DNA of 64,000 nucleotides from Pseudomonadota bacterium (GCA_021324155.1 JAJPJQ010000037.1:36427-100426), one strand, 5' to 3'; positions 18,653 to 60,156 are shown, counted from the first letter of the stretch. The notes: a model not told the origin generated them from the sequence alone. Made by a program: numbers and translations.

Positions 18653-19978
18653 TTAGGGGTATACGTCGGCGCCGTTCGGCGCCTTGTTCTTCGCGATCGT
18701 GCTGTTGGACGGAACGAAGGTTGCGCCGGCGTTGTTGAAGACGCCGCCGCCGCGGTCCGCAGCTTTATTGCCGCTGACGACGCTGTCGGCAAGCTTGAAA
18801 TAGCCGTGGATATTCGCGACTCCGCCCGCGTAAACGCCGGCGCCGTTCTTCGTCAGCATGGTGTCGTAGATGTAAAGCCGGCCGATCGCCGCTCCGCTGC
18901 CGTAGTTTTCGACGCCGCCGCCGTACATCGCGCTGTTGCCGGTAATGACGCTGTTGAAAATTTTCGCCGTGCCGTAAACGTTGTCGATACCGGCGGCGGC
19001 GCGCGACGCACGATTCTTGGCGATGGTGCTGTGCTCGATGCGCAGATAACCGTCGTAATTGGCGATTGCCCCGCCTTCGCTCGACGCGGTATTGCCCGAG
19101 AGCGTGCTATCCACGATACGAATGTACTGGTAGCTGAATAGCGCGCCGCCGACCTCCGCTTCATTCTTACTGATGACGCTATCGCGAATCAGGAGAGCGG
19201 CCGCCGGGCCGCGGCTGTAGATGGCGCCGCCGTTAGCTGCGGTGTTGCCGGAGATCGTCGATGAATTGACGGCGAGGCTGCCGTAATTAAGAATCGCGCC
19301 GCCTGTGGTCGCCGAGCCGCCGCTCAGCGTCACATCTTCCAGCGTCAGATCCCCCGACACCGCGACCGCGAGCAACCGGAACGCCGGCGCTTTCTTCGAC
19401 CGAATAATCTTCGCGTGATTGCCGGCGATGGTGATAGCGCTCGCGACGATCGGGAGACCCGTCGCGCCGGCGTAGTCGGTGTAAGCCTGCGCCAGCTGCT
19501 GCGTTCCCTTGGGCAAAACGATGATGTCAGCGCCGCTGCCGGCGGCGCAGTCGGAGTACGTCGCCGCATCGTCGTTAGCGTTGACGATCGCCTCGGCCAG
19601 CGAGCAATGGCCGTCGCCATCGACGACCGCCGGGATCTTTGCGGTAACGGTAATGGTCGCCGCTTCGCCGGTTTGCGCAATCGCGCACAGCAGTGCCGCG
19701 GCCGCGATTGAGCGCGAGAGCTTGCGCAGCACATGGCGGCGCCCCTGCCGCGGCAACAAATCATCGATGTGCCGCGCGCGAACGAGCCGCCGTTCGAGCG
19801 ATCGGCGCATGCCGTGCGGCAATCGCCGAAGGACGGGATACCAGAACGCAAAGCGAGGCAGCAACTCGCCGCGGCGGACGGTCAACGCCGCGGCGAGCTC
19901 AGGCGCGTCGCTGAATTGCGCGAGTCCGGAGTTCCACGCGGCGACGATTCTCTCGTCCCGCTTGAGTCCCGCTACCAC
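18653..19978 (-). CDS. CSLREA-domain / right-handed parallel beta-helix repeat surface protein, paralog P1, with conserved N-terminal cytoplasmic-type domain and internal signal anchor
   Basis: CSLAEAIVNAN (CSLREA-type motif) follows the hydrophobic segment IAAAALLCAIAQTGEAAT. Pectate-lyase-like repeats (GGAI.N.G...S.ISGN.A). C-terminus ...GADVYP*. Confidence 0.7.
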   Translation of the reverse strand: MVAGLKRDERIVAAWNSGLAQFSDAPELAAALTVRRGELLPRFAFWYPVLRRLPHGMRRSLERRLVRARHIDDLLPRQGRRHVLRKLSRSIAAAALLCAIAQTGEAATITVTAKIPAVVDGDGHCSLAEAIVNANDDAATYSDCAAGSGADIIVLPKGTQQLAQAYTDYAGATGLPIVASAITIAGNHAKIIRSKKAPAFRLLAVAVSGDLTLEDVTLSGGSATTGGAILNYGSLAVNSSTISGNTAANGGAIYSRGPAAALLIRDSVISKNEAEVGGALFSYQYIRIVDSTLSGNTASSEGGAIANYDGYLRIEHSTIAKNRASRAAAGIDNVYGTAKIFNSVITGNSAMYGGGVENYGSGAAIGRLYIYDTMLTKNGAGVYAGGVANIHGYFKLADSVVSGNKAADRGGGVFNNAGATFVPSNSTIAKNKAPNGADVYP

Positions 19979-20045
19979 ACCGCACCTCCGCTGGGCGCCT
20001 TTGACGTGCGGTGCAAACGCCGCGACAAAGACACGCAGGCGCTTA

Positions 20046-21374
20046 TCATGAGCCGTATACGTCCGCTCCGGTTGGCGCTTTATTGCGTGTCACGACACCG
20101 CCGTCGGTGAAAACGCCCGTCCCTGACGTATCGACACCGCCGCCGTACGTCGTAGCGGTGTTTTTCGTAATCGTCCCGCTCGTCAAAGCGAAGGAGCCCC
20201 GATTCGAGACGCCGCCGCCGGCATCGCTGCGATTTCCGGAGATGGTGCTGCCGGTAACCGTGAGGCTATCGCCGTCGCCGTTGTAAATACCGCCGCCTCT
20301 GCCCGACGCGCTGTTTTTCGTGATCGTCGTGTCGGAAATCACGGTCACGCCGTAGACGGCGATGCCGCCGCCCTTCGACGCGCTGTTACCGGTAATGACG
20401 CTGCCGGTGATCGTGTCGTGCGCCGTCGTAGAAAGCAGACCGCCGCCGAACGACGGATTGCCGTGGTACGGCACGGCTTTATTTTTCGACAGCGTGCTAT
20501 TCGTCATGGTGAACGTGCCGCTGTAATTCGTCACGCCGCCGCCGTAGTTCGCGACGTTATTTGTGATCACGCTGTCGCTCACGCTAAGACTCCCGTAAAG
20601 GATGAAAACGGCCCCTCCTTCGAACGCCACATTCCCGGAGATGGTACTGTGGATGATCGTGACACTGCCGTAATCGTCAATCGCGCCGCCGCGCAGCCGT
20701 CCGTTGGCGTCGCCGCCGCTGAGCGTGACATCTTGAAGTGTAAGATCGCCGGATGCGCTGACCGCCATCAGGCGGAACGGCTCAGCTTTTTTGCTGCGGA
20801 CGATTTTCGCGCCGTTTCCCTGGATTGTGATCTTCGTATTGATCACCGGGAGGCCGGTCTTGCCCAAGTCGTCGTTGTCGGCGGCCGTGATCGTGATCGT
20901 TCCTTTGGGCAGAACGATCGTATCGTCGCCGGTTCCCGCCTCGCAGTCGCCGAACGTAGCGCCGCCATTGTTGGCGTTGACGATCGCCTCCGCGAGCGAG
21001 CATTTGCCGTCGCCGTCGTTGATTTCCGCCGGCGTCTTCGGCGTCACGTTGATCGTCGCCGCCTGACCGGCTCCCTGCGTCAGCGCGAGCAGCAGCGCCG
21101 CGCCGGCGAGAGAGGTCGCGAGCCGCATCTGCCACGCTGGAAGAGCGGCGCGCCGGCAGCGGCGTACGAGCTTTCGCTCGAACGCGCGCCGCGCACCGCG
21201 CGGCAGCGCGCGCAAGCGCGCGTAATAATCGGCGAAGCGCGGCAAAAGCTTTGCGCCTTCCTGTGCGACGATGTCGTTGAATCCCGGCACATTCGCCAGC
21301 TCTCCCACTTGAGAATCCCAAGCGGCGACGATCGTATCGTCCAATGAAACGGCATATGCCTGAAAATAGTTCAT
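20046..21374 (-). CDS. CSLREA-domain / parallel beta-helix repeat protein, paralog P2
   Basis: Same architecture: N-domain (AAWDS...LPRFADYYARLRALPRGARRAFERKL), h-region MRLATSLAGAALLLALTQGAGQAAT, CSLAEAIVNAN, beta-helix repeats, C-terminus ...GADVYGS*. Confidence 0.7.
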   Translation of the reverse strand: MNYFQAYAVSLDDTIVAAWDSQVGELANVPGFNDIVAQEGAKLLPRFADYYARLRALPRGARRAFERKLVRRCRRAALPAWQMRLATSLAGAALLLALTQGAGQAATINVTPKTPAEINDGDGKCSLAEAIVNANNGGATFGDCEAGTGDDTIVLPKGTITITAADNDDLGKTGLPVINTKITIQGNGAKIVRSKKAEPFRLMAVSASGDLTLQDVTLSGGDANGRLRGGAIDDYGSVTIIHSTISGNVAFEGGAVFILYGSLSVSDSVITNNVANYGGGVTNYSGTFTMTNSTLSKNKAVPYHGNPSFGGGLLSTTAHDTITGSVITGNSASKGGGIAVYGVTVISDTTITKNSASGRGGGIYNGDGDSLTVTGSTISGNRSDAGGGVSNRGSFALTSGTITKNTATTYGGGVDTSGTGVFTDGGVVTRNKAPTGADVYGS

Positions 21375-21652
21375 AAATGATGATCCTCCAGGCCCAGAAT
21401 CCTTTGGATGAGGATTTTCGGCCCAGCGTCGATAATGCCGTTGGGATCGGTTTGCGACAATCAGGTCGTTACCTGCTTGGCGCCGAAGTTTTTACGTAAA
21501 ACAGAGGGATTAGAAGGGCGGGTTATGCGATTTATATCGGGTGAGATACTGATTTGATTTTTAACGAAAAATTAACGGCCGGCAGCTGAACCAGGAATTC
21601 TCGTTCTTATCGGCTACGGCGAAGCGAAGCGCGCAGAGAAAGACGGTAGCAA

Positions 21653-23200
21653 TCACGGGTAAACGTCGGCATGCGCCGCCGCGGTATTGCCGCTGATAGT
21701 GCTGTTATTAATCTGCAACGTAGCATCAGGCGGTGGCAGATTATAAATACCGCCGGCGACGAACAGAGCCGTGTTTCCGGTTACCGAGCTGCCGTTTAGA
21801 TAAATGTAGCTCGAATTATGGATACCGCCGCCCTTGCCGCCGTAATTGGACTGGGAGTAGGCAACATACTTGCCTTCGGCCGTGTTGGTTCCGTTAATCG
21901 TGCTGCTGTTGATCGTAAGACCGCCGTGATTGTTAATCCCGCCGCCGTAGCCGCCGACGTAATATGTTTTGTTGTTGTACACACTTGGTGAGACGGTTGC
22001 ATGATTACCCGAAACGGTGCTGCTGGTAATTACGGCGTCGGCCTGATCATCATTGAACAACCCGCCGCCGTAATTCGCGTTGCTATTCGAGATCGTAATG
22101 CTGGTGGCGATTAGGGTATGGGCGTTATGCAAACTGCCGCCTTTAAATGCGCTGTTTCCCGTTAAGGTGCTGCTCCCGATCGAAAGCCGTCCGTAAGGAA
22201 CGCCGATCGCGATGCCGCCGCCGTTCCTCGCCGCGGTGTTGGTCGAGATCGTGCTGTTCGTGATCGTCGCACTGTAAGCGTTGTCGATGCCGCCGCCGTC
22301 ATAATTCGCATGATTGCCGGTAATCGTGCTGTTGTTCGTGACCGTGAGATTGCCGATATTGTAGATGCCGCCGCCGTAATCAGCGGTGCTGTTGCTGACA
22401 TTACTGTGATTGAGGCTCAGATTCCCAGAGTTGAAGATGGCGCCGCCGATCGGCGCCGTCCCCGAGATCACACTATCGACAATGGAGACGCTGCCGGCAT
22501 TGTAGATCGCGCCGCCGTTATAGACAGAAGATGATCCCTGTACCGTGACGTTCTGCAACGTCAGGCTGCCCCCATCGTTGACAAAAAAGATACTATTACC
22601 CGTGATCCTGCCGCCTGTGCCCGGAGGTGGCGGAGGTTGGCCTTTTTTCGGCTTTTTGGCCGCAACTCCTTGAATTGTGATATTTCCGCTGATGGGCGGC
22701 AAATAGCTTGCGCTTATACTTGCGTTTTTCGGCAGCGCGATGATCGTGGGACCAGGCGAGGCTTGGCAGCCACTGTAACTATAAGATTTCTTCGTGACCG
22801 GGTATCCCGTAGTGTTCGCGTATTCGGCAGCATAGATCGCGTTATACAGCGAGCACTTTGTGCTGAGCTTGATGGGCTTCGGACCCTTAGCTTCTGAAAT
22901 CGTTTGTCCGAGCGCGATCAACAACGCCGCGCCGGCAATCGAATACGCGAGTCTGCGCCGCCAGTCGGCGGGAATTGCCGCGTCTTCAGAGCGCGCGAGG
23001 TTGCGTTGCAGCGCGCGGCGCACGGTCCGCGGCAGCGCGCGGATTTCGTTGTATGAGGTGGTGAATCGCTGGAACAACTCCTGGCCCTGCTCTGCCAGGA
23101 TTTGCTCGATCCAGGGTGTTTTGATACGGCGGAGCTCTGAATCCCAAGCGGTGACGACCGACTCGTCCGCAGGAAGCGGACACGGAGAGAGATAATTCAT
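21653..23200 (-). CDS. Parallel beta-helix repeat protein, divergent paralog P3 (degenerate CSL motif, Pro/Lys-rich linker)
   Basis: N-domain conserved (VTAWDSE...FQRFTTSYNEIRALPRTVRRALQRNL); TM-like LAYSIAGAALLIALGQ; KCSLYNAIYAAEYAN. Long N-x-T/S-rich beta-helix repeats; C-terminus ...AHADVYP*. Confidence 0.6.
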   Translation of the reverse strand: MNYLSPCPLPADESVVTAWDSELRRIKTPWIEQILAEQGQELFQRFTTSYNEIRALPRTVRRALQRNLARSEDAAIPADWRRRLAYSIAGAALLIALGQTISEAKGPKPIKLSTKCSLYNAIYAAEYANTTGYPVTKKSYSYSGCQASPGPTIIALPKNASISASYLPPISGNITIQGVAAKKPKKGQPPPPPGTGGRITGNSIFFVNDGGSLTLQNVTVQGSSSVYNGGAIYNAGSVSIVDSVISGTAPIGGAIFNSGNLSLNHSNVSNSTADYGGGIYNIGNLTVTNNSTITGNHANYDGGGIDNAYSATITNSTISTNTAARNGGGIAIGVPYGRLSIGSSTLTGNSAFKGGSLHNAHTLIATSITISNSNANYGGGLFNDDQADAVITSSTVSGNHATVSPSVYNNKTYYVGGYGGGINNHGGLTINSSTINGTNTAEGKYVAYSQSNYGGKGGGIHNSSYIYLNGSSVTGNTALFVAGGIYNLPPPDATLQINNSTISGNTAAAHADVYP

Positions 23201-23212
23201 CCGACCTGTTAC

Positions 23213-25561
23213 TTACTGCCTTGCGCTCGCGCCGCGCAAAGCATCGGCAACGCGTTGGATTACGCCGGACCAGTTGCCGGCCTCGCTTTGCCGGAAAAGA
23301 CTCATCGTCGGATACCACGGAGTGGTCTCTCCGGTCAATCCCCAACGCCAGTCGGCGGCGTCGCTGAGCAGCGTCCATGCAGGCTTTCCCAGCGCTCCGG
23401 CCATGTGGGCTACCGAAGTATCGACGGCGATGACGAGGTCGAGCTGGTCGATGAGGATCGCGAGGTCGCCGAAGTCGCCGAGCAAAGGATCGAGATCGTG
23501 GACCTTTACGTCCGACGGCAGCTCGCTCAAGTCTTTGGCGCGCTCGCCCTTTTGCAGGCTGAAAAAATCCGCACCTGATACGCGCAAGATGGGAAGAAAG
23601 TCTTTCAAAGCGCACGAGCGCTGGCGGTCGGTGCGGTTAATCGGGCTGCCCGCCCACGCGATGCCGATCTTTGGGCGCGGCGAAGGGGCCAGGACGAGCG
23701 CCGGATTTTCTTTCCGGCGGCGGAGCGCCGCAGCGTCGAGGTAAGGAACCGCCGAAGGGATCGTCTCCGGCGTCGTGCCGAAAACGTACGGCAGGCTCAA
23801 CATCGGCAGATGCGTATCGAAGTCGCCGACTTTGATTTCGCCGGGCTCGCGAATATGCGCGACGCCGGGGATCGTGGCGAACACCGCGCTCAGATCGGGG
23901 CGGCAGGCGAGGACGACTCTCTTGCAGCGCTCGGCCGCCATTGGCAGATAGCGCGCGAACTGGATCGCGTCGCCCGCGCCCTGCTCGTTATAAACGAGCA
24001 GAGTCTTTTCCGGCGCCGGCTTTCCGTCCCACGGTGGATGCGGCGAGCGCACCGCCGGGAACTGCGGCAGCTTTCGGCGCGACTCGTATTCGGCGAGGCC
24101 GCGCGTATAGTCGCCAACCTGAAGCAGGCACATGCCGAGGTTCATACGCGCTTGCGGATAATTGGGCTGGAGTTCGAGGGCGCGCTCGTACGCGGCGATC
24201 GCCTTTTGCGGCTCGCGCCGGCGCGCGAAAGCGAAGCCGAGGCTATTGTAAGCCTCGGCGCGCTCGGGCTCCGCCGCGACAACCTGCTCAAGCTCGGTGA
24301 CGGCGTCGGCATACTTGCCGGCGTCGCCCAGCGCGACACCGAGGTTGAAGCGCGCGTTGGGAAATTCCGGCTGGAGCGCGACACATTGCCGGTAGGCCGC
24401 GACCGCCTCTTCGATCTTGCCTTTCGAATACAGCTCGTTGCCGCGCTGAAAGTGAAACCCCGGCGAGCGCTCCAGCTCTTCGGGGCTCGGCAGATGCACG
24501 TCCGCGAGCGCCTCGTCGGGCAGAACGTAGGATTGCGCGAGCCGCGGATCGGTCCATTCGAGCATCTCCGGAAACCGGATGCCCTGAAGCGCCTGCACGG
24601 CGAAGATCTCCTGCACGCCGGCCTCGAAGCGGAGAAAGCCAACCGTCTGGCCGTTCTCGATATTGACGATCCAAACGCCGCACGTGCGCTCTTTCAGCCG
24701 CTGCACCAGCGGAATGCCGCTGAAAACCGCGCTCTCGCGCACCTGCGAGAGACCGATGAAGGCGAGCGGGCCGATGAAGTCGATGCCACGCGTGAAGCCC
24801 GGCACCTGCGCCACGGCGCGCCACGTTCGCGATTCGAGATCAATCTCCGCCAGCGTCCCCTCGCCCGATTCGAGCACCCAGAGCTTGTCGCGATACCAGC
24901 GCGGTGAGTGCGGCATGGAAAGGCCGCGCAGCAGAATCTCGTTCGTCTCGATGTCCATCAAAAGGCCGCCGCGGGCTTTATTCGCGCGCCACCCGCCGGC
25001 CGTGTCGGTCTCGCCGAGAGCGGTGACATACTTCGGCCGGCCGTCCACCATCGCGAGGCCGTTCAAGTGACAGCGGTCCTCCGGCGCGAGCGCGCTCACG
25101 AACGGCGGGCGCCAGCGTGGATGAAAGCTGTGATCGACATCGAGCGTACAGAGGCAGCAGAAACGCGTGTTCACGACCCAGAGCTCGTTCTTCGCGTCCC
25201 ACGCGAGCTCATGGATGTCGATGTCCCCCGTGACGTGAATGCGCCGCGGCAGATAACAGGCGTCGTGCTTTCCCGGCGGGTCCAGCTTTTGCGCGACCGC
25301 CGGCATATTGCGGTATTCCCAGACCGTATTCGCGCCGCCGATCGTGAGGCGGTTGTGGTCGGCGGCGATCCCCATCGGCTTGGCGAACGTACGGAAGTGC
25401 GTGTTGAGGGCGCCGCCGTCGTTGCGCACGACGATCGTCTTTCCCGCCTGGTAGGTGGAAACGACGAGACTGATCTGCAGCCGCTCGAAAAGCGCTGGAA
25501 GATTCGCCGTATGGACGCTGCGGAGGGGTGCGTCCTCGGTGGTCTCTGGTGCTTGAGCCAT
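23213..25561 (-). CDS. Multidomain glycosyltransferase: N-terminal about 330-aa conserved domain (tentatively TIGR03032-like) + TPR repeats + C-terminal glycosyltransferase family 9 (heptosyltransferase-like) domain
   Basis: Central TPR repeats (AYRQCVALQP...NLGVALGD...AYNSLGFAF...). C-terminal GT9 signature (IGIAWAGSP...DLVIAVDTSVAHMAGALGKPAWTLL). 12 bp from the P3 start and 53 bp from the P4 stop, so embedded in the array. Confidence 0.7.
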   Translation of the reverse strand: MAQAPETTEDAPLRSVHTANLPALFERLQISLVVSTYQAGKTIVVRNDGGALNTHFRTFAKPMGIAADHNRLTIGGANTVWEYRNMPAVAQKLDPPGKHDACYLPRRIHVTGDIDIHELAWDAKNELWVVNTRFCCLCTLDVDHSFHPRWRPPFVSALAPEDRCHLNGLAMVDGRPKYVTALGETDTAGGWRANKARGGLLMDIETNEILLRGLSMPHSPRWYRDKLWVLESGEGTLAEIDLESRTWRAVAQVPGFTRGIDFIGPLAFIGLSQVRESAVFSGIPLVQRLKERTCGVWIVNIENGQTVGFLRFEAGVQEIFAVQALQGIRFPEMLEWTDPRLAQSYVLPDEALADVHLPSPEELERSPGFHFQRGNELYSKGKIEEAVAAYRQCVALQPEFPNARFNLGVALGDAGKYADAVTELEQVVAAEPERAEAYNSLGFAFARRREPQKAIAAYERALELQPNYPQARMNLGMCLLQVGDYTRGLAEYESRRKLPQFPAVRSPHPPWDGKPAPEKTLLVYNEQGAGDAIQFARYLPMAAERCKRVVLACRPDLSAVFATIPGVAHIREPGEIKVGDFDTHLPMLSLPYVFGTTPETIPSAVPYLDAAALRRRKENPALVLAPSPRPKIGIAWAGSPINRTDRQRSCALKDFLPILRVSGADFFSLQKGERAKDLSELPSDVKVHDLDPLLGDFGDLAILIDQLDLVIAVDTSVAHMAGALGKPAWTLLSDAADWRWGLTGETTPWYPTMSLFRQSEAGNWSGVIQRVADALRGASARQ

Positions 25562-25614
25562 AGCGCTATAAATTGCGCTATCGAAGCCCCGCTGTCAACG
25601 TATTTGCTGCGGGA

Positions 25615-27183
25615 TCAGAATTCGAACGAGCCGACGTCGCAGCTCGTCCCCTGCGGGCGCGTAACGCCCCGCTGATCTTTCGGCGCGCAATCCGCGTCGG
25701 CCGGCGACGCGTCGATCGCCGGGCTGCCGGACACCAGCGCATGCGTTTTGGTCGGGCCGCCATTATAGGCGAGCGGCATCAAGATGCTGGCGATGCCTAC
25801 GTTCGGGACAATGTCGGTCGGACCGGGTGAAAATCCTTTCACCCCGTCGCCGCCGCCGGCGCCGAACACATTGTAGTTATTTCGATATACGTTGCCGGAG
25901 AAGCGGTCGATTTCATCCGCGAAAGAAGCGGAATTGCCGGAGATCAAGCTGCGCGTCAAGGTGAGATCGTTGACCACGGTGAAGATGCCGCCGCCGTCGC
26001 GCGCGGAGTTCTTGGAGATCGTGCTGTTCGAGATCGTCATCGTCGAGCGATTGTAGATGCCGCCGCCGGTGAGGGCCGTATTGCCGGAGATCGTGCTGTT
26101 GATGATGTCGGTCGTACCCGAGCGGTCGAAGATGCCGCCGCCGTAACCGAAAAATCCCGTGTCGTTGCTCGACAGCGTGCTGTAGGCAACGAGCACGCCG
26201 CTGTCGCGATGATGCAGCCCCGCGCCGTCGCGGCCGGAGAAATTTTTCGTGACCGTGCTGTATTCGATATCCAGGCTGCCCGCGCGATCGTAGACGCCGC
26301 CGCCATCGATGAAAGCGCGATTGCTTTTGATCGTGCTGTAGTTCACCGTGACTGCGGCGTTGTAATTGTATAAGCCGCCGCCGTAGTCGGCGAAATTCCC
26401 GGAAACGACGCTGTTGTCGACCGTCGCTTCCGCGGCGGAGCCGTTGAAGATGCCGCCGCCCAAATGCGCCCGCCCGTTCGTCACCGTCGCGTCGGTAAGC
26501 GTGAGCGTGCCGTAGTTGAAGATAGCGCCGCCGAACTTCTCCGATCCGCCGCTGACCGTCACGTTGTCGAGCGTGAGATCGCCGGTGCTCTTCACGGCGA
26601 AGAGGCGAAAGCCGAACTTGCCGACGATCTTTGCGCCGTTGCCGGAGATCGTGATGTCGCTGGTGATCGCGGGCAGGCCGTTTTTACCGTAATATTTGCT
26701 AAAGCTCTTCGTCACCTTGATCGTGCCGAGCGCCGGCAGATCGATAACATCCGCGCCCGAGCCGGCGCTGCAGTCGGCATGCGTGGCGGCGTCGTTGTTC
26801 GCGTTGACGATCGCCTCGATAAGGGTGCAGAGCCCGTCGCCGTCTTTGACTTTGGTAGTAAGCGTATTGACGGTAATCGTCGCGGCGGACGCGGCGCTCT
26901 GCGCGAGCGCGATCAGGAGAGCCGCACCGGCGGCGGAAGTTGCGAGCTTCGCTTTCCACGACGGCGCGGAGCTCGCCAGCCGCCGCAGCAGCGCGCGCCG
27001 GGCACCGCGCGGCAGGCGTTGAAGGTTGCCGTAGGCCGCGGCAAAGCGCGCGAACAGCTCTCCGCCGGGTACGGAAAGCGCATCAGCGACCGCGGGCTCG
27101 TCAATAAATCGGCTGATTTCAGAATCCCACGCGGCGAGAACCGCTTCGTCGGCGGAAAAGGCGTAAGGACGGAGGTAATCCAT
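25615..27183 (-). CDS. CSLREA / choice-of-anchor-Q-type parallel beta-helix repeat protein, paralog P4
   Basis: Start at MDYLRP (GAGGAAG RBS). N-domain (AAWDSEI...FARFAAAYGNLQRLPRGARRALLRRL); TM-like KLATSAAGAALLIALAQSAASAAT; CTLIEAIVNAN. C-terminal LAYNGGPTKTHAL.SGSPAIDA...CDVGSFEF*. Confidence 0.7.
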   Translation of the reverse strand: MDYLRPYAFSADEAVLAAWDSEISRFIDEPAVADALSVPGGELFARFAAAYGNLQRLPRGARRALLRRLASSAPSWKAKLATSAAGAALLIALAQSAASAATITVNTLTTKVKDGDGLCTLIEAIVNANNDAATHADCSAGSGADVIDLPALGTIKVTKSFSKYYGKNGLPAITSDITISGNGAKIVGKFGFRLFAVKSTGDLTLDNVTVSGGSEKFGGAIFNYGTLTLTDATVTNGRAHLGGGIFNGSAAEATVDNSVVSGNFADYGGGLYNYNAAVTVNYSTIKSNRAFIDGGGVYDRAGSLDIEYSTVTKNFSGRDGAGLHHRDSGVLVAYSTLSSNDTGFFGYGGGIFDRSGTTDIINSTISGNTALTGGGIYNRSTMTISNSTISKNSARDGGGIFTVVNDLTLTRSLISGNSASFADEIDRFSGNVYRNNYNVFGAGGGDGVKGFSPGPTDIVPNVGIASILMPLAYNGGPTKTHALVSGSPAIDASPADADCAPKDQRGVTRPQGTSCDVGSFEF

Positions 27184-27308
27184 GGTGCTTCCTCGCATTC
27201 CGGGCCTTGCCGCGGGGATCAAGTAGTGTTCGAGACCAGGTAAAGACCCTAAATCGGTAAATCGCGGCAAAAATTTAGACGCGGGGGAAGAAAAAAAGTT
27301 TACAAGGT

Positions 27309-28943
27309 TTATTTCTCGAAGGCGCCGATGTCGCACGCAGCGCCCTGCGGGCGTGCGATTCCGCGCTGATCCTCGGAAGGACAATCAGGGCCTACAGGCG
27401 CTGCGTCGATCGCCGGACTGCCGGGCACAAGCGCGTGTGTGGGCGTCGGTCCGCCGTTGTCGGCGAGGGGGCCGAGAATTTTCGTGATGGTCGTTCCCGT
27501 CGGAGGGATAATGTCGGACGCTCCAGGTGTGAAGCCGATCACCCCGGCATTACCGTTAGTGCCGAACAAGTTGTGATTGTCGACGGTGATCCCAGTGCCA
27601 TTATGCTTAACTTCCGCAGCTGAGCCCTTGTTGCCTGATACGAGCGTCCGCTTAATGGTCATATCGCCGCGATTATAGACCCCGCCGGCGATCTTTCCCT
27701 TATTGCCCGTAATCGTGCTGTTACTTAGAGTTAAAGACGCGCCATAAATACCTCCCGCATATTTCGCGCTGTTACCTGAGATCGTGCTGTTTTCGATAAC
27801 ACCCGGGGCAGCTCCACTTGAGATCCCGCCGCCGCCAGGCCCTGCTTTGTTCGCTATCACTGTACTGTTCTCGACCGTCAGAGTGCAATTGAAGCTCTGG
27901 ATGCCACCACCATCAAAATGAGCCGAGTTCGATGAAATAATACTGTTACTTATGTTAGTGGTGCAGTACGGTTCGTGATAATTGAAAGCGTTAGCTAATA
28001 CGCCGCCGCCGTGTTCAGCAGCGATGTTTTTCGATATCGTTGTGTTATCGACCTCAAGCAGGCCGTTGTTATACAAAGCGCCGCGATTTGCTCGATTTCC
28101 GCTCACCGAACTGTGTTGAACTGACGCTGTACCGTCCTCATGATTGAAAATCGCCGAACCGAGTCTGGCTAGATTCCCCGAAAGCACGCTGTTTTCGATC
28201 GTGACATCGCCGCGGTTATAGATGCCTCCACCATAATTGGCTATGTTGATATTGATTGTGCTGTCTTCAATCGTCACGGCGCCATAATTAAGAATCGCTC
28301 CGCCTTTAACTTGAGCGCCGCCGCTCAGAGTAATGTGATCTAAGGTCAGATCACCCGAGGTCGTGACGGTAATAAGACGAATCGGAGTCTTGCTCTTCTT
28401 CACGGTAATTCGCGCGCCGTTGCCCTGAATGATGATTTGACTCGTTATCACCGGCAGGCGCGAGCCATATACCGTATCGTAAATCCCGGTCACGGCGTGA
28501 ACGCTTGCGGCAGGAAGCGCTATGGTATCTGTTCCGCTCCCCGGCAAACAGTCCGCATGTGTCGCCGCGTCGTTGTTCGCATTGATGATCGCCTCCACGA
28601 GCGAGCAGAGACCGTCACCGGCGATCTTCGGAATGTTCGTGTTGACGGTGATCGTCGCCGCCGGAGCCGCTTGCGCGAGCGCGAGTAGCAGCGCCGCGCC
28701 CGCGATGGACGCGGCGAGCCTTTGTGTGGCGGCGGCAGAAACATTGAGGCCGCATGAGCACGCGAGCTTTCGCTGCAGCGCACGGCGCGCGCCGCGCGGC
28801 AGGGATCTAATTTTGGCGTACGCGGCGGCGAAGCGCGGAAAAATCTCTTGCTCGCCGCCCAACGGCGGCGCATGCCGGACGGATTCCCACGCTGCGAGAA
28901 GATTGTCGTCTACCGGGAAAGAGAGCGGTTGAGAATAATACAC
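27309..28943 (-). CDS. CSLREA / choice-of-anchor-Q-type parallel beta-helix repeat protein, paralog P5 (first gene of the array, GTG start)
   Basis: N-domain (AAWES...FPRFAAAYAKIRSLPRGARRALQRKL); TM-like LAASIAGAALLLALAQAAPAAT; CSLVEAIINAN. C-terminal LADNGGPTPTHALVPGSPAIDAAP...CDIGAFEK*. GGAGG RBS 7 nt upstream of GTG. Confidence 0.7.
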   Translation of the reverse strand: MYYSQPLSFPVDDNLLAAWESVRHAPPLGGEQEIFPRFAAAYAKIRSLPRGARRALQRKLACSCGLNVSAAATQRLAASIAGAALLLALAQAAPAATITVNTNIPKIAGDGLCSLVEAIINANNDAATHADCLPGSGTDTIALPAASVHAVTGIYDTVYGSRLPVITSQIIIQGNGARITVKKSKTPIRLITVTTSGDLTLDHITLSGGAQVKGGAILNYGAVTIEDSTININIANYGGGIYNRGDVTIENSVLSGNLARLGSAIFNHEDGTASVQHSSVSGNRANRGALYNNGLLEVDNTTISKNIAAEHGGGVLANAFNYHEPYCTTNISNSIISSNSAHFDGGGIQSFNCTLTVENSTVIANKAGPGGGGISSGAAPGVIENSTISGNSAKYAGGIYGASLTLSNSTITGNKGKIAGGVYNRGDMTIKRTLVSGNKGSAAEVKHNGTGITVDNHNLFGTNGNAGVIGFTPGASDIIPPTGTTITKILGPLADNGGPTPTHALVPGSPAIDAAPVGPDCPSEDQRGIARPQGAACDIGAFEK

Positions 28944-36633: not shown

Positions 36634-38511
36634 TTACAGCTTCGCCGCCGTGTCGTCGTCGACCGGCTTCGGCGCCTCGTCCGTGGCGTACTGGAGCTGG
36701 TAGAGCTTGTAGTAAATCCCCTGCTTCTGCATCAGCTCGGCGTGCGTGCCCATCTCGCGGATCTCGCCGTGGTGGAAGACGATGATGCGGTCGGCGTTGC
36801 GGATCGTCGAGAGGCGGTGCGCGATGACGAGGCAGGTGCGTCCTTCCATGACTTTCTCGAGCGCGTCCTGGATCAAAAGCTCGGTCTCGGTGGCGACGCT
36901 TGACGTCGCTTCGTCGAGCACGAGAATCTCGGGCTGAAAGACGAGCACGCGCGCCAGCGACAACAGCTGCCGCTGACCGGTGGAAAAATTGCTGCCGCGC
37001 TCGCGCACATGCGCGCCGAGGCCGTCGGAATGGCGGCTGAGGACGCGCTCGACATTCGCGCAGCGTACCGCCTCCGCGATGCATTCGTCGGAGACGCCGC
37101 TCTCGCCGAGCGTCAGGTTCGTCCGCACGTCGCCGGAAAAAAGAAACACGTCCTGGAGCACGACGCCGATGTGGCGGCGGAGCGCGGATAAATCCCAGTC
37201 GCGCACGTCGACGCCGCTTACTTTGATCGAGCCTCCCTGGATGTCATAGAAGCGGCTGAGCAGCTTGATCGTCGTTGTCTTGCCGGATCCGGTCGCGCCG
37301 ACGATCGCCACGCGCTCGCCCGGCTGCACGGTGAACGAAACGCCCTTCAGCACCGGAGTGTCCGGTTTATACGAGAACCATACGTTCTCGAAGCGCACTT
37401 CGCCGGTGAACGGCTTCGGCACTATGGGCTTCGGCGGATTATCGATGGCGATCGGCGTGTCGAGCAGCTGGAAGATGCGCTCGGCCGACGACATGGCGGA
37501 CTGCATGACCGTGTATTTCTGGCTGAAGTCGCGCAGCGGCACAAAGAAGCGGTTGATATACTCCTTGAACGCGACGATGGTGCCGATGCCGATCGCGCCG
37601 GCGAGCGCCTCGCCGCCGCCGTACCACAACAACAGCGCGAGGCTCACCGAACCGGCCGCTTCGACCATCGAGTACAACGCGGCCTCGTAAACGTTCGAGA
37701 GCTGGTTCGCGTCGCGGTGCGCCGCGTTGAGCTCGTCGAATTCGCGGTAGCTCTTTTCCTCGCGGGTGAAAAGCTGGATCACCGCCATGCCCGAGATCGC
37801 CTCGCCGAGGTAGCCGTTGATGCGCGCGATGCGCTCGCGGATCAGCCGGTAGGTCCGGCGCGCCTTGTGGCGGAAGAAATTGATCGCAAAGAACATCGGC
37901 GGGATCAGCGCGAGCGACACGAGCGCAAGCGTCACGTTGATGTAGAGCATGATCGCCACGATCCACACGAGCATGACGAAGTCCGAGAGGACCGTCATGG
38001 CTCCCGCCGCGAACATCTCTTGCAGCACGTCGACGTCGCTCGTCATGCGCGTCACCAGCCGCCCGACGGGATTCCTGTCGAAGTAGCTCATCGGCAGCTT
38101 CTGCACGTGCGCAAAGATCGCGACGCGCATATCGGCGAGCGACCGCTGCGCCACGAGCATGGTGAGATAATAATGCGCGTAGCCCGAGACCGCCTCCCCG
38201 AGGACCGCGACCATCAGAAGAGCGGCGATGCCGAGTAGTCCACGGAGATCGCCGCCGGCCATGTAGCGGTCGATGGCGATTTTCATGAGATAAGGCTGCG
38301 CGAGGCCGCAGACCTGCAGCAGCGGCAGGAGCAGCAGCGCGCTGAAGAAAAGCCGCTTGTATGGAACGAGGAAGCGCCACAACCGGCGGATGAGCCGGAT
38401 GTCATACGCCTTGCCGTACTCTTCTTCCGGCTGCTGGTCGGGCGCCGGACGGAACGCGCTCTGCTTTCCGTTCCGCGCCGCGCCGTTGGTAGGTTCGATG
38501 GGATTCGCCAT
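36634..38511 (-). CDS. ABC transporter ATP-binding/permease fusion protein (type I exporter half-transporter, MsbA-like)
   Basis: 6-TM domain plus NBD with Walker A GATGSGKTT, signature FSTGQRQ, Walker B ILVLDEATS. Confidence 0.8.
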   Translation of the reverse strand: MANPIEPTNGAARNGKQSAFRPAPDQQPEEEYGKAYDIRLIRRLWRFLVPYKRLFFSALLLLPLLQVCGLAQPYLMKIAIDRYMAGGDLRGLLGIAALLMVAVLGEAVSGYAHYYLTMLVAQRSLADMRVAIFAHVQKLPMSYFDRNPVGRLVTRMTSDVDVLQEMFAAGAMTVLSDFVMLVWIVAIMLYINVTLALVSLALIPPMFFAINFFRHKARRTYRLIRERIARINGYLGEAISGMAVIQLFTREEKSYREFDELNAAHRDANQLSNVYEAALYSMVEAAGSVSLALLLWYGGGEALAGAIGIGTIVAFKEYINRFFVPLRDFSQKYTVMQSAMSSAERIFQLLDTPIAIDNPPKPIVPKPFTGEVRFENVWFSYKPDTPVLKGVSFTVQPGERVAIVGATGSGKTTTIKLLSRFYDIQGGSIKVSGVDVRDWDLSALRRHIGVVLQDVFLFSGDVRTNLTLGESGVSDECIAEAVRCANVERVLSRHSDGLGAHVRERGSNFSTGQRQLLSLARVLVFQPEILVLDEATSSVATETELLIQDALEKVMEGRTCLVIAHRLSTIRNADRIIVFHHGEIREMGTHAELMQKQGIYYKLYQLQYATDEAPKPVDDDTAAKL

Positions 38512-38516
38512 GCCGA

Positions 38517-40259
38517 TTAGTCGATATGCTCCAATTCTTCCGTGAGCTGCTGCTGGCGATAGAGGTCGGCGTAAAGGCCGCCGCGAGCGACGAGATCCTG
38601 GTGCGTGCCGCGCTCAATGACGCGTCCTTCGTCGAGGACCAGGATCTCGTCGGCTTCCTTCACCGCCGATATCCGGTGCGAGATGATGACGCAGGTCTTC
38701 TCGTCGATGGCGGATCTCAGGCCGCGGAGAATCACATCCTCGGTCTCGGCGTCGACGCTGGACAGGCAGTCGTCGAGCACGAGAAAGGGCGCGTCCGCGA
38801 CGAGGGCGCGCGCGAGCGTCGCGCGCTGCTTCTGCCCGCCGGAGAGGGTGATGCCGCGCTCGCCGACGATCGTTTGAAGACCCTCGGGAAAGATCGCGAC
38901 GTCGCGGTCGAGGCGCGTCGTCTGCACGGCCGCCTCGATCTCTTCGTCGGACACCTCGTCGCGGCTGAAAGCCAAGTTGCGCGCGAGCGATGTCGAGAAG
39001 AGAAACGGGTCCTGCGGCACATAGCCGATCACTTTCCGGAGCTCTCCGAGCGAAAGCGAGCGCACGTCGCGGCCGCCGATGCGGACCTCGCCGGACGACA
39101 CGTCGTAGAGCCGCGGGATCAGCTGCGCGAGCGTGCTCTTCCCCGCGCCGGTGCGGCCGACGATTCCGAGCGTGCGGCCGCGCGGTACGACGACGTCGAT
39201 GTCCTTGATGATTGCCTCGCCGTTGACCTTGCCGTCGTGCGCGAACGAGACGTTTCTGAACTCGATGCCTTGCTTTCCATTGCCGACAGCCTGCGCCACG
39301 GCGGGGCTCGCGATCGCCGGCTCGATCTTGAATATCTCCTCGAGCCGCTCCATCGCCGCCCGGCCGCGCTCGATGAGCGACAGCATCCAGCCGAACGCCG
39401 CCGTCGGCCACGCGAGCACGTGGAGGTAAGCGATGAAAGCGACAATGTCGGCAATCAAGAGATCGCCGCGTATCACGCGCCACCCGCCGTAACCGACGAC
39501 GAGCAGGATCATCATGCCGGCGAGCGCCTGCATGACAGGCCCGAGCAGGCCGCGCAGGCGCGCGAGCTCCATGTTCTTGTCCTGGAAGTCCCGGTTCAGC
39601 TCGACGAAGTCGCGGATCTGGTTGGCTTCCTGGGTATAGGCTTTGACGACGTGCATGCCGCTCAAGTTCTCCTGGATGTGCGAGCTCAGCTCCGCCATCT
39701 GCCGCTGTACGCTGAGAGAGCTCTTGAGGATCCGCCCGCGGAAGCGGCGCACGGCATACATCAGCAGCGGACACGGAAGCAGCGCGACGAGCGTCAGGCG
39801 CACGTCGATCGAGAACATGAGAACGATGCCATAGAGATAGTATGCCGGCGCGTTGACAAAATTGAGAATGCCCGGGCCGAGGAGCGAGCGCACGGCGGAG
39901 ATGTCGTTGATCACGCGCGACATGAGGTCGCCGGTGCGCTGCGCATGGTAGAAACCGACCGGCAGTTTCTCCAGATGGGCGAAGAGATCGTTTCTAATGT
40001 CGTACTCGATGTCGCGCCCGGCGTTGAAGATAAAGGCGCGGGAAAAAGTGCGGATGACGCCTTGCGCGACGCCCGCGACGGCGATCAGCGCCGCATAATA
40101 GCGCACGTCCCAGAGACTGCCGCCCTGCTCGATGACCTTGACCGCCCCGCGCATGAGCCACGGGATCCACATGACGAGCGATACCGTGCCAAGCAAGCAG
40201 AGCGCGCCGAGGACATAGCGCCGCCAGTAGCGCAGCACGTAAGTCCACAGCCTTCCCAT
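38517..40259 (-). CDS. ABC transporter ATP-binding/permease fusion protein (heterodimer partner)
   Basis: 6-TM domain plus NBD (GRTGAGKST, LSGGQKQR, LVLDDCLSSVD). 5-bp spacer to the downstream paralog, so likely a heterodimeric exporter. Confidence 0.8.
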   Translation of the reverse strand: MGRLWTYVLRYWRRYVLGALCLLGTVSLVMWIPWLMRGAVKVIEQGGSLWDVRYYAALIAVAGVAQGVIRTFSRAFIFNAGRDIEYDIRNDLFAHLEKLPVGFYHAQRTGDLMSRVINDISAVRSLLGPGILNFVNAPAYYLYGIVLMFSIDVRLTLVALLPCPLLMYAVRRFRGRILKSSLSVQRQMAELSSHIQENLSGMHVVKAYTQEANQIRDFVELNRDFQDKNMELARLRGLLGPVMQALAGMMILLVVGYGGWRVIRGDLLIADIVAFIAYLHVLAWPTAAFGWMLSLIERGRAAMERLEEIFKIEPAIASPAVAQAVGNGKQGIEFRNVSFAHDGKVNGEAIIKDIDVVVPRGRTLGIVGRTGAGKSTLAQLIPRLYDVSSGEVRIGGRDVRSLSLGELRKVIGYVPQDPFLFSTSLARNLAFSRDEVSDEEIEAAVQTTRLDRDVAIFPEGLQTIVGERGITLSGGQKQRATLARALVADAPFLVLDDCLSSVDAETEDVILRGLRSAIDEKTCVIISHRISAVKEADEILVLDEGRVIERGTHQDLVARGGLYADLYRQQQLTEELEHID

Positions 40260-57203: not shown

Positions 57204-58595
57204 TCAGTTTTTTGCGCCGAGTTTGCGGTTGTGCGTCCGGCACAACAGTTGTGCGTTCTCGACGTCGGTTTGGCCACCCTTGCTGTGTGGTAATACATGA
57301 TCGGCCTCGTATTCGGACCAAGATACACGGCAATCCGGTTCTGGCTTTCCCGCCTTAATGCACGCTTGGCACAACCCATTGTCGCGTCTGTAAATCAGAA
57401 TCCGGTCCGCCTCACTGAAAGCCCGCCTCGAATCTTTGACGATGATCTTGACGCCTTTTTCCTTTGCGAACTCAAAGAATAGCTGGCGGATGATTCTGTG
57501 CCGTGCCTCCACTTCATTGCTCGTCTGCTGCCGACTATCCGAGAACGCAACGATGTCGCGGTCGTCTTCCGACTTCTTTTTCCAACGCTGATGAAAGGCT
57601 ATGACGAAGTCGTGAAACAACTTCTTTTCCGCTTGGCCCCAGACGTAGTGGGTTGCCAAGTGGCGGAGTAGCAAATAGACGGAAAGGATGAAGTATTCAA
57701 TGCGCAACTCCTTGATTGCTCCGTTGCTGTCGTCGCGCATCGGATCATCTTTGAATACTTCATAGAGAGCATTCATGTTGTGCAGCACAGACTTCGCGTG
57801 CGCTTGTTTCTCGAACGACAGATTCCCAATCCCATCTGCAACTTGGTACTTGTCGATGTAATCTGTAACGTCGCCGTCCTGGATGTTCGCTGGACCATTC
57901 GCTTGTTCCAGGATGAGGAAACGCGTGAGGATGGCCAAGTGCTGCATGCGGTCATTCCCTCGGTCGATGACCGTGAAGAATTTGTGCTTATCCTTATTGC
58001 TATCCACGGGCGTGTACTTTTCGTAGTCAAACGTGATGTCGTCCGCGTACTTGACCACGAAGTTCCGGCTTAAGCTGGAGAGCCGCGCGTGTGCCTTCTC
58101 CATGTACGTAAGGTCCTCACCTTGCTGCAGACGCCAGAAGATGTCCGCTGCGACGCTCTGGTGCTGGGGGTTCCTGGGGTCTTCAATGCCCTTTACAATG
58201 TCGGCGTTATACTTCAACTCTTTATCCACAAACTTGCGCACATCTGCCGATAGCTTCGAGTACGTCTTGCCCGGCAATGACGGATAGACATCCTTGAGCG
58301 TGTTCGGCAAGGCAAGTTCGTCCGTGAGGAAGTCCTGGGCGGTGGTGATGCGTTGTTGGCCGTCGATAACTTCCTTGACGGTGCGCTCTTCGTCCAACCG
58401 AACCAGCCGGATAACGATACGTGGGATGTAGTAGCGACGGAAAAGGCTGTCAAGAAGCGCCTGTTGCTTCTTTCGACTCCAGACGCTTTTGCGCTGGTAC
58501 GGCGGACGAACTACGTACTCATCCTTGTAGTCAGCGAAATCCTTGATCGCGATCGCGTCAAAACCAACGTCGTATGCGGTTCGCGGATTGAACAT
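57204..58595 (-). CDS. GmrSD-family type IV restriction endonuclease-like protein (N-terminal DUF262/ParB-like + C-terminal DUF1524/HNH)
   Basis: DUF262 signature (VRPPYQRKSVW...IDGQQRITT). C-terminal His-Me finger (ADHVLPHSKGGQTDVENAQLLCRTHNRKLG). Confidence 0.75.
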   Translation of the reverse strand: MFNPRTAYDVGFDAIAIKDFADYKDEYVVRPPYQRKSVWSRKKQQALLDSLFRRYYIPRIVIRLVRLDEERTVKEVIDGQQRITTAQDFLTDELALPNTLKDVYPSLPGKTYSKLSADVRKFVDKELKYNADIVKGIEDPRNPQHQSVAADIFWRLQQGEDLTYMEKAHARLSSLSRNFVVKYADDITFDYEKYTPVDSNKDKHKFFTVIDRGNDRMQHLAILTRFLILEQANGPANIQDGDVTDYIDKYQVADGIGNLSFEKQAHAKSVLHNMNALYEVFKDDPMRDDSNGAIKELRIEYFILSVYLLLRHLATHYVWGQAEKKLFHDFVIAFHQRWKKKSEDDRDIVAFSDSRQQTSNEVEARHRIIRQLFFEFAKEKGVKIIVKDSRRAFSEADRILIYRRDNGLCQACIKAGKPEPDCRVSWSEYEADHVLPHSKGGQTDVENAQLLCRTHNRKLGAKN

Positions 58596-58662
58596 ATAAC
58601 CTATCCCTCCTCACCCCTCCTCATCCTCGTTGTCGCGGCCGAGGCAGTATCGTGTGCGTGGT

Positions 58663-60156
58663 TTAGCTCTCACTCTTGGTCAGCTTCCCGGCAATCTTAG
58701 AAAACAGCTGGAAGGCGGTTTCCAGTTCGTCCGCTATTTCAGCAGCAAGCACGTCGGGAGCTGGCAGCGAGTCGGTGTCGGTAAGGCTTTGGTCTTTGAT
58801 CCAGAACAAGTCGAGGCTTAGTTTGTCGCGCTTGAGAATCTCATCGTAGCTGTAGCAGCGCCAACGGCCATCCGGGTTCTCTTCGCTCCAGGTTTCTTTT
58901 CGGTCGTGAATTTTCCCGGGTTGATAGCACGCGACAAACTCCTCGAAGTCCTTTCGCGTGATAGGCGCTTGCTTTTGCGTAAAGTGTTTGTTTGTCCGCA
59001 GATCATAGACCCAAAGGTTTTCGGTCCACGGCTCGGGTCGGCCTTCCCTTTTGTCGAAGAAGAGCACGTTAGCCTTGACGCCGGGCGAATACCAGATGCC
59101 GGTGGGCAGACGCAGCAGAGTATGGACGTTGCATTTTCCCAGGAGGTTTTTGCGAATCTTCTCACCTGCGCCGCCCTCGAAAAGCACGTTGTCCGGGACA
59201 ACAACCGCAGCGCGTCCGTCTATTTTCAGGAGCGAGAACATATGCTGCAGGAAATTGAGTTGCTTGTTGCTGGTGGAAGTCCAGAAATCTTCCCGCACTA
59301 TGACCTGGTCGTCTTTTTCCGTGTCGCCTTCCTCGTTCACAAAAAGCAGACTCTGGCTTTTACCGAAGGGCGGATTGGCCAGAATCATCGTGTATTCCTT
59401 GCTCCATGGCGCGGCGAGGCTGTCATGACCCGAGTGGACGACGACCTTGTCACCGCCAATGCCGTGCAGGTAGAGGTTCATCGCGCACATGCGGGCGACC
59501 TTGGGCGATAGCTCCATGCCCTCAACTAATTCCTCACGAAGCGCCCGCTTCTCTTCCGCGTTCAGCTCCTTAACGAACTTGTCGAGCACGTAGTTGTAAG
59601 CGGTGAAAAGGAAGCCGCCCGTGCCGGCGGCAGGGTCGCAGATGCGGTCTTGGGGTGTGGGCTGCATCACTTCGACCATCGCCTGGATGACGGCGCGAGT
59701 CGTGAAATATTGGCCCGCGCCCTTGGTTGATTCAGACGCGGACCGCTGGAGCAGCTCCTCGTAAATCGTGCCCTTCACGTCAACCGGCAGGCTCAACCAG
59801 TCCTCTTTATCAATAAGGTTGACGATGAGCTGTTTCAGCAGCGCCGGGTTATGTATGTCGCAGCGGGCGCCCTTGAAGATGACGCCCAACAGGCCGGGCT
59901 TAAGCGCAAGCTTCTCGATGGATTCGCTGTACTGTTTTTCCAACGCGGCGCCGTCGAGCTTGAGCAGCGCTTTCCAGCCGAGATCCGGTGGCACGATGGG
60001 CGGCTTGTTGTGCGGCGGCTCAGTTAGCTGGTCCGCCATCTTGAGGAAGAGCAGCATCGTGAGTTGCTCGACATATTCCACACAGCTCAATCCGGCCTGC
60101 TGTAAGACTCCGGCGTAGCTCCATGCCCGTTTCCCGATTTGCGATGCGTCGATCAT
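58663..60156 (-). CDS. hsdM: Type I restriction-modification system DNA methyltransferase subunit
   Basis: N6-adenine MTase motifs: AdoMet binding DPAAGTGGFL, catalytic NPPFG. Confidence 0.9.
   Translation of the reverse strand: MIDASQIGKRAWSYAGVLQQAGLSCVEYVEQLTMLLFLKMADQLTEPPHNKPPIVPPDLGWKALLKLDGAALEKQYSESIEKLALKPGLLGVIFKGARCDIHNPALLKQLIVNLIDKEDWLSLPVDVKGTIYEELLQRSASESTKGAGQYFTTRAVIQAMVEVMQPTPQDRICDPAAGTGGFLFTAYNYVLDKFVKELNAEEKRALREELVEGMELSPKVARMCAMNLYLHGIGGDKVVVHSGHDSLAAPWSKEYTMILANPPFGKSQSLLFVNEEGDTEKDDQVIVREDFWTSTSNKQLNFLQHMFSLLKIDGRAAVVVPDNVLFEGGAGEKIRKNLLGKCNVHTLLRLPTGIWYSPGVKANVLFFDKREGRPEPWTENLWVYDLRTNKHFTQKQAPITRKDFEEFVACYQPGKIHDRKETWSEENPDGRWRCYSYDEILKRDKLSLDLFWIKDQSLTDTDSLPAPDVLAAEIADELETAFQLFSKIAGKLTKSES

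Follow-up and report, generated by a model that had tools for sequence, protein, structure and literature searches.

A conserved N-terminal domain, predicted to belong to an extended signal peptide, in five beta-helix paralogs of a soil bacterium, and its candidate partner, a TIGR03032/DUF4915 protein

The window analysed here is a stretch of 64,000 nucleotides from a Pseudomonadota bacterium (GCA_021324155.1, JAJPJQ010000037.1:36427-100426), derived from a 506-kb contig of a soil metagenome. Its region 18653-28943 encodes, on the minus strand, five paralogous beta-helix proteins (P1-P5) and a sixth protein, a member of the TIGR03032/DUF4915 family. Each paralog starts with a conserved N-terminal domain (N-domain), which precedes a short hydrophobic segment and the beta-helix. 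Residues 1 to about 95-106 are best read, from their sequence, as an extended Sec-type signal peptide that is predicted to be cleaved off. The DUF4915 gene is found beside N-domain genes in several phyla, and this pairing suggests a dedicated pre-export step rather than an anti-sigma factor. The overall view, that the paralogs are secreted beta-helices resembling rhombotarget A whose extended, cleavable signal peptide would also act as a docking leader for the DUF4915 protein, is given slightly better than an even chance of being correct.

Paralogs and translation of the N-terminal extension

An earlier note on this DNA, made from the sequence of the window, had described five beta-helix paralogs with a homologous N-terminal region. 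The five paralogs are real and their sequences align from residue 1, with the amendments that P4 starts at the ATG at 27183, not with the longer TTG open reading frame (ORF) at 27384, and that the region also encloses an unmentioned sixth gene (23213-25561), with DUF4915, TPR and GT9-like parts. The consensus proposed at that time was matched in the alignment of the five paralogs, where the invariant residues are D..AW.S...P...RF..Y...LP..RR..R.L. A profile hidden Markov model (HMM) of the family, run against the six-frame translation of the window, detected exactly five copies (E 5e-20 to 7.5e-33) and no further one. The N-domains of P1-P5 are 89, 84, 83, 79 and 75 residues long, respectively, and each is followed by a segment of 17-21 hydrophobic and small residues, then by ATITV (KGPKP in P3) and by the CSLxEAI motif (Table 1).

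The extension is translated and is not a 5' untranslated region, as had also been proposed; this is supported by Shine-Dalgarno sites, public gene calls, substitution rates and conservation throughout the family. GGAGG or GAGGA is located 5-9 nt 5' of the start in four paralogs, and AGG in P3, while the starts in the public gene calls are identical to those used here. With the orthologs in two contigs of related metagenome-assembled genomes (MAGs), the ratio of non-synonymous to synonymous substitution rates (dN/dS) amounts to 0.27 in the N-domain; the mature part (0.21) and the hydrophobic core (0.15) have lower values. An annotation artefact, with initiation at the hydrophobic segment and an upstream part that would be untranslated or form a separate small ORF, is regarded as extremely improbable. 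It could be based on the in-frame Met83 of P2 (21126-21128), which is located two codons 5' of the core and would give a textbook 23-residue signal peptide (MRLATSLAGAALLLALTQGAGQA), as well as on an in-frame GTG at a comparable place in P1 (around 19730). However, P3, P4 and P5 have no start codon near the core, the N-domain is in frame with the cargo in all the full-length members listed and is matched by 459 protein clusters, and both its dN/dS and the Shine-Dalgarno sites in front of the upstream starts argue against such an artefact. Dual initiation, by which one form would carry the leader and the other lack it, is conceivable in P1 and P2 only.

Signal peptide anatomy

The region around the hydrophobic segment has the traits of a Sec signal peptide: a basic n-region, a short hydrophobic core and small neutral residues at positions -3 and -1. 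The uncharged run is 11-21 residues long, with a median of 15, in 99 members of the family, and 12-15 residues long in the five window proteins. R or K is located directly before the core, and Q/G and then small residues follow it. In an alignment of 67 members, the residue at -1, preceding the conserved ATI.V, is Ala in 65 cases, Ser in one and Gly in one; position -3 is occupied by A (43), S (8), V (8), G (7) or L (1), so that A, S, V or G is found there in 66 of the 67. At -2 the residue varies, and Q/G predominate at -6/-5. The conservation of the -3/-1 rule favours cleavage, since an uncleaved anchor would have no reason to keep it.

A net charge of +6 to +10 is found over the final 30 residues of each N-domain, and the start of the mature part is neutral. 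Being strongly basic next to the hydrophobic segment, the N-domain should stay in the cytoplasm. Thus, the N-in topology that had been proposed for the paralogs stands, whereas the stable single-pass anchor that accompanied it is disfavoured by the short core and the conserved -3/-1 site. Because standard signal peptide predictors concentrate on the N-terminal end, a signal starting only 75-90 residues into a protein may escape them, and such proteins might be mislabelled as cytoplasmic or membrane-anchored.

The N-domain family

A profile search of 1.84 billion representative proteins (E <= 1e-3, clusters at 50% identity) assigned 459 clusters to the N-domain family. Among the matches listed, the domain is located at the first residues of the protein, save in a few with apparently over-extended starts, and in family proteins it spans residues 1 to about 88. 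In every full-length member inspected, a hydrophobic segment comes next and leads to a CSLxEAI beta-helix; the two residues Cys and Ala of this motif are invariant in 67 of 67 aligned full-length members. The nearest genomes are MAGs labelled Candidatus Binatia, and more distant members occur in MAGs labelled Chloroflexota, Spirochaetota, Verrucomicrobiia and Proteobacteria. A single locus may encode as many as seven paralogs in tandem (L010).

The N-domain could be assigned to no family catalogued in Pfam, NCBIfam or PDB, in agreement with the earlier note: nothing consistent was obtained with Pfam and NCBIfam, the best match among PDB sequences (E 0.13) was noise, and no fold match was found. 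AlphaFold2 (AF2) predicted three helices for it, at about residues 13-28, 32-56 and 59-76, with predicted local distance difference test (pLDDT) values of 82-89 for the domain alone and 84-94 in a full-length model. The extreme N-terminus is disordered in the prediction, yet conserved. A link between the N-terminal sequence MNYFxPY and the TPR fusion of DUF4915 was considered and rejected, the same N-termini being found with fused and standalone DUF4915.

The first homology search for the N-domain returned only proteins of up to 156 residues. A separate class of genes for small, standalone N-domain proteins was nevertheless rejected: these are contig-end fragments, frameshifted copies in long-read MAGs and decayed remnants such as L022. 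Many N-domain genes on long contigs (118-750 kb), among them those of L015, L016, P0026, P0027, P0029 and P0051, have an apparent frameshift right after the N-domain, for which errors of sequencing are a much likelier cause than programmed frameshifting. The contigs of L015 and L016 seem to derive from error-prone long reads, the DUF4915 gene next to the N-domain gene being broken as well. A second cluster from the metagenome sample of the window (L004/L005, 6095-11547; GCA_037025705.1) contains three tandem N-domain paralogs with no DUF4915 nearby; in the third copy, a frameshift shortly behind the RR motif interrupts the gene.

Two of the window paralogs deviate in their details. The linker of P1 between the RR motif and the hydrophobic core (19688-19810) resembles an internal tandem duplication of the motif, where the RRxLxRKLAxS segment occurs as LPHGMRRSLERRL and again as LPRQGRRHVLRKL, and a second partial HMM match is located there. 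Relatives such as P0087 and P0109 carry a duplication too (RRALQRQLARS...RALQRKLAYS), and the insert is missing in distant members. P3 is the odd paralog, with KGPKP as the predicted mature start instead of ATITV, the motif CSLYNAIYAAEYANTTGYPV with a 10-residue insertion, a Pro/Gly-rich insert (PPPPPGTGG) and a weak match to DUF4957 in the public annotation. P3 is also the paralog located directly after the DUF4915 gene, in L006 and L007 as in the window.

The DUF4915 gene and its pairing with N-domain genes

The sixth gene encodes a 782-residue protein without a signal peptide. TIGR03032/DUF4915 was identified at residues 16-337 (E 1e-125), TPR repeats at about residues 370-490, and a weakly matching GT9 heptosyltransferase-like C-terminus at residues 697-746 (PF01075, 23.1 bits with a cut-off of 22; TIGR02193, E 6e-6). 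The stop codon of this gene is located 12 nt before the start of P3. By tblastn, the same gene was found beside N-domain genes in Binatia-type loci (L006, L007, L009 and L010), and a standalone DUF4915 of about 370 residues directly upstream of an N-domain gene in MAGs labelled Chloroflexota (L019, L024), deltaproteobacterium (L015) and Spirochaetota (L016). The reverse scan, starting from DUF4915, covered 80 metagenomic loci, 30 of which could be evaluated (at least 2 kb downstream), and in 23 of the 30 the next gene on the same strand was an N-domain gene. It follows a standalone DUF4915 after a gap of 124-726 bp, or a fused TPR-GT directly; start and stop codons overlap in L007, L009 and L024.

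DUF4915 proteins of MAGs labelled Binatia, Chloroflexi, Gammaproteobacteria and Methylococcales share 75-87% identity with the window protein, and the family has at least 8000 database matches. The high conservation might reflect either exceptionally strong selection or recent horizontal spread. The beta-helix genes adjoining DUF4915 share just 35-50% identity (window; L019, L022, L024, L025-L104). Against PDB, DUF4915 gave a weak match to one blade of a soluble glucose dehydrogenase beta-propeller (E 0.036), and the protein is probably a beta-propeller. DUF4915/TIGR03032 is not mentioned in the literature searched, and the domain libraries give no function for it.

Proposed mechanism

Each paralog may be the precursor of a secreted CSLxEAI parallel beta-helix with an export signal of about 95-106 residues. 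The last 20 or so of these would provide the Sec-type hydrophobic core and an AxA site for signal peptidase I, while the first 75-89 would form a basic three-helix domain remaining in the cytoplasm. This domain is proposed to be a docking leader, by which the DUF4915 protein would capture the precursor before or during Sec export; the leader is a candidate for the docking site because it should be cytoplasmic and sets the family apart from the domain models of other CSLREA helix proteins, and the partner, encoded in the same operon, is cytoplasmic as well. The captured precursor might be held, targeted or modified, possibly through glycosylation of the repeat-rich helix. Cleavage by signal peptidase would then free the mature helix, which would pass into the envelope, and the leader, a fragment of about 100 residues, would stay at the membrane. 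In the window organism, the TPR and GT9-like domains fused to DUF4915 suggest, by analogy, that the repeat-rich helix may be glycosylated.

More tentatively, the N-domain and TIGR03032/DUF4915 may constitute a hitherto unrecognised leader-guided pre-export system that holds, routes or covalently modifies CSLREA beta-helix proteins. Modification in Binatia might then occur via the fused TPR and GT9-like domains, and the leader would be discarded by signal peptidase. If true, leader-dependent peptide maturation would thereby have a counterpart at the scale of whole proteins, and the orphan TIGR03032 a first function. From the extended signal peptides known in type V secretion and on accessory-Sec glycoproteins, this leader differs in three respects: it is predicted to be a folded domain of about 70 residues, the domain databases that were searched do not contain it, and it is genetically linked to a dedicated partner in the cytoplasm. 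The pairing offers a testable handle on TIGR03032/DUF4915, with the leader as its candidate ligand, and may show how Binatia, Chloroflexota and other soil bacteria ready large beta-helix surface proteins for export. The N-domain taken alone is a modest curiosity; more attention is merited by its link to an orphan family that is both abundant and extremely conserved.

Several observations weigh against a docking leader with a cleavable signal peptide. Seven of the 30 evaluable DUF4915 loci have no N-domain gene nearby: three near-identical loci of one taxon, one with a fused gene and other neighbours, L085 and two further loci. In L085 (104-7951), from a low-GC organism, a distant DUF4915 (56% identity) is located between AMP-binding and ATP-grasp genes, a setting that hints that the DUF4915 family may act enzymatically in other pathways. 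The role of DUF4915 therefore appears to be wider than partnership with the leader, given L085 and the other loci that have no N-domain gene. Conversely, within 10 kb of about half of the N-domain loci there is no DUF4915. In the MAGs tested, one is present at another place, and genomes with several N-domain loci have DUF4915 at one locus only. The stretch from the last basic residue to the AxA site, about 21 residues, is long enough to span the membrane. As for glycosylation, the GT9 assignment is marginal (its 23.1 bits barely exceed the cut-off of 22, and neither sequence nor profile searches of PDB gave a relative), and the GT9-like domain is missing from the standalone DUF4915 partners, so that glycosylation could at most be a lineage-specific addition.

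Alternative explanations

The membrane-spanning length just mentioned would suit a permanent type II (N-in/C-out) membrane protein, with an uncleaved signal anchor and a lasting cytoplasmic N-domain involved in signalling, either as an anti-sigma/RsgI-like protein or as a receptor; in a milder form, the N-domain would recruit the DUF4915-TPR-GT protein to the membrane. A folded (according to AF2), basic and conserved N-domain and the presence of a cytoplasmic partner also agree with this explanation, which is nonetheless considered unlikely. The -3/-1 rule is kept in 66 of the 67 members with Q/G helix breakers preceding, the strictly hydrophobic core is just about 12-15 residues long, and up to seven tandem paralogs per locus (L010) are atypical of pairs of a sensor and an anti-sigma factor. 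The anti-sigma-like role, which was put forward in the earlier note, is not supported, given the short core and the conserved peptidase site and since neither an anti-sigma domain nor a sigma gene was identified. When 63 N-domains were compared with anti-sigma, RsgI, extended signal peptide region (ESPR) and twin-arginine translocation (Tat) models, no match was obtained even at E <= 1, and the N-domain has no conserved His or Cys and no HxxxCxxC motif. The same note had reported that the window has no sigma factor gene, and this agrees with a tblastn search with E. coli RpoE, in which neither the window nor any of 104 related loci gave a match below E = 2, although its sensitivity for divergent sigma factors is low; no sigma factor was found among the Pfam-annotated neighbours either. 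The resemblance to anti-sigma factors of the extracytoplasmic function (ECF) and SigI types (ZAS, RsgI) is limited to the gross order of a cytoplasmic N-terminal part, a hydrophobic segment and an extracytoplasmic part; the paralogs differ from them in lacking an anti-sigma domain, HxxxCxxC and a neighbouring sigma gene, and have a short core and a conserved peptidase site instead.

A Tat-type leader with an invariant twin arginine (LPRxxRRxLQ[RK]) and a long n-region is very unlikely. In such a case the helix would fold in the cytoplasm, and DUF4915 would be a leader-binding proofreading chaperone similar to TorD or DmsD, a role that a leader-specific cytoplasmic partner would suit. The arginines are indeed invariant (R62 in 67 of 67, R63 in 66 of 67), and in distant members they are located 5-11 residues from the core, with T/S-R-R-x-L-Q-K partly resembling S/T-R-R-x-F-L-K. 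Against this, TIGR01409 and PF10518 match no member even at E <= 10, and in the five window proteins the RR is separated from the core by 16-30 residues, the residues beside the core being QMR (P2), KAK (P4) and TQR (P5). Moreover, the position +3 after RR is Gln and not a hydrophobic residue, the core is Leu-rich, and the c-region has no basic residue. The signal might instead be self-sufficient in the manner of ESPR proteins, the N-domain pacing export at the Sec translocon or along the targeting route so as to prevent premature folding, and DUF4915 being functionally unrelated to the leader, for instance acting on the mature part only; this is about as improbable as the type II protein. The layout, an extension before a canonical signal peptide on beta-helix cargo, is alike (PMC8151025, PMC2805444), and the absence of a nearby DUF4915 from half of the N-domain loci speaks for it as well. 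On the other hand, the extension is about three times as long as an ESPR, its predicted structure is a folded unit of three helices, it has no sequence relation to PF13018, and its tight association with DUF4915 on one strand (23 of 30 loci, several phyla) argues for a functional link to a feature specific to the family, which is the leader.

Comparison with known systems

Type V secretion provides an established precedent: some of its beta-helix adhesins have extended signal peptides, and GT9-related heptosyltransferases glycosylate such helices in the cytoplasm (AIDA-I, TibA and Ag43); the signal peptide of ESPR proteins is not required for this glycosylation (PMC8151025). ESPR proteins (PF13018; EspP, Hbp, AIDA-I and FhaB) resemble the N-domain family in having a conserved extension, a Sec signal that is cleavable (by prediction in the N-domain family) and a large repeat-rich beta-helix cargo (PMC8151025, PMC2805444). 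The ESPR itself is about 25 residues long and without sequence similarity to the N-domain, whereas the extension of the N-domain family has 55-89 residues and three predicted helices and is accompanied by a dedicated cytoplasmic TIGR03032/DUF4915 gene, which ESPR proteins do not have. Domain models detected no PF13018, autotransporter or TpsA/TPS domain in any member of the family. In bacterial autotransporter heptosyltransferase (BAHT) systems (TibC/Aah), a GT9-related enzyme is encoded beside its beta-helix substrate; here, the neighbouring DUF4915 protein gives a weak GT9 match at its residues 697-746.

The leaders of serine-rich repeat glycoproteins exported by the accessory Sec system (SecA2/SecY2) of Gram-positive bacteria are about 90 residues long and carry a KxYKxGKxW motif. 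They are similar in being very long signals with a conserved extension, and the surface proteins that carry them receive their glycans in the cytoplasm, before export, from enzymes encoded alongside. The differences are the Gram-positive hosts, the other motif and the dedicated SecA2/SecY2/Asp genes, none of which was detected among the neighbours scanned. The N-domain family thus resembles ESPR and accessory-Sec leaders in layout but belongs to neither group.

Mature beta-helix proteins

The cargo of the family consists of Chlam_PMP or Beta_helix repeats, often ending in a choice-of-anchor Q domain, and may be followed by varied C-terminal modules, such as RTX repeats and thrombospondin-type repeats. 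The motif CSL[AVIY][EN]AI is present in all five window proteins (as CTLIEAI in P4). The related models named for rhombotarget A, CSLREA and choice-of-anchor Q proteins are TIGR04212, TIGR04214 and NF041518, and the related structure in PDB is 9cdv. In fold and motif, the mature part agrees with rhombotarget A/CSLREA proteins (Foldseek E 6e-6 to 9cdv), although matches to TIGR04212 (rhombotarget A) are partial and, at 19-43 bits, far under the cut-off of 295. TIGR04214 matches the relatives P0165 and P0183, and choice_anch_Q was identified in P4 and P5. Rhombotarget A proteins are not known to have more than an ordinary signal peptide. A sortase-type LAVTG signal in the cargo C-terminus gave a weak, sub-threshold match, and the GlyGly-CTERM model matched none of the window paralogs.

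Table 1. Positions of the genes and of their predicted parts in the region 18653-28943 of the window.
Feature	Position	Strand	Basis
P1	18653-19978	-	ORF
P1 N-domain, residues 1-89; GTG start, GGAGG upstream; tandem LPxxxRRxLxRxL duplication	19712-19978	-	Alignment, HMM
P1 signal peptide core SIAAAALLCAIAQTGEA; predicted cleavage before ATITV	19661-19711	-	Segment anatomy
P1 mature beta-helix	18653-19660	-	Domain models, alignment
P2	20046-21374	-	ORF
P2 N-domain, residues 1-84; predicted helices 13-25, 32-56 and 59-75	21123-21374	-	Alignment; HMM; AF2 helices
P2 signal peptide core LATSLAGAALLLALTQGAGQA; predicted cleavage before ATINV	21060-21122	-	Segment anatomy
P2 mature beta-helix; closest solved fold rhombotarget A (9cdv)	20046-21059	-	AF2 model, Foldseek
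P3	21653-23200	-	ORF
P3 N-domain, residues 1-83	22952-23200	-	Alignment; HMM E 7.5e-33
P3 signal peptide core LAYSIAGAALLIALGQTISEA; predicted cleavage before KGPKP	22889-22951	-	Segment anatomy
P3 mature beta-helix, divergent: CSLYNAI and insertion	21653-22888	-	Alignment, domain models
782-residue cytoplasmic protein: TIGR03032/DUF4915, TPR, GT9-like	23213-25561	-	Domain models
P4	25615-27183	-	ORF
P4 N-domain, residues 1-79; ATG start, GAGGA upstream	26947-27183	-	Alignment; HMM E 4e-26
P4 signal peptide core LATSAAGAALLIALAQSAASA; predicted cleavage before ATITV	26884-26946	-	Segment anatomy
P4 mature beta-helix; C-terminal choice-of-anchor Q domain	25615-26883	-	Domain models
P5	27309-28943	-	ORF
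P5 N-domain, residues 1-75; GTG start, GGAGG 6 nt upstream	28719-28943	-	Alignment; HMM E 5e-20
P5 signal peptide core LAASIAGAALLLALAQAAPA; predicted cleavage before ATITV	28659-28718	-	Segment anatomy
P5 mature CSLxEAI beta-helix; C-terminal choice-of-anchor Q domain	27309-28658	-	Domain models

Other features of the window

Two adjacent genes of half-size ABC exporters (ABC_membrane and ABC_tran) are located on the minus strand at 36634-40259, 8 kb from the cluster; no link between them and the beta-helix genes was seen in related loci. A defence island occupies 57204-63912 on the minus strand, with a G+C content of 0.55 compared with about 0.62 elsewhere. It encodes the R (EcoEI_R_C/ResIII), S (Methylase_S) and M (N6_Mtase) subunits of a type I restriction-modification system, as well as a GmrSD-like HNH endonuclease.

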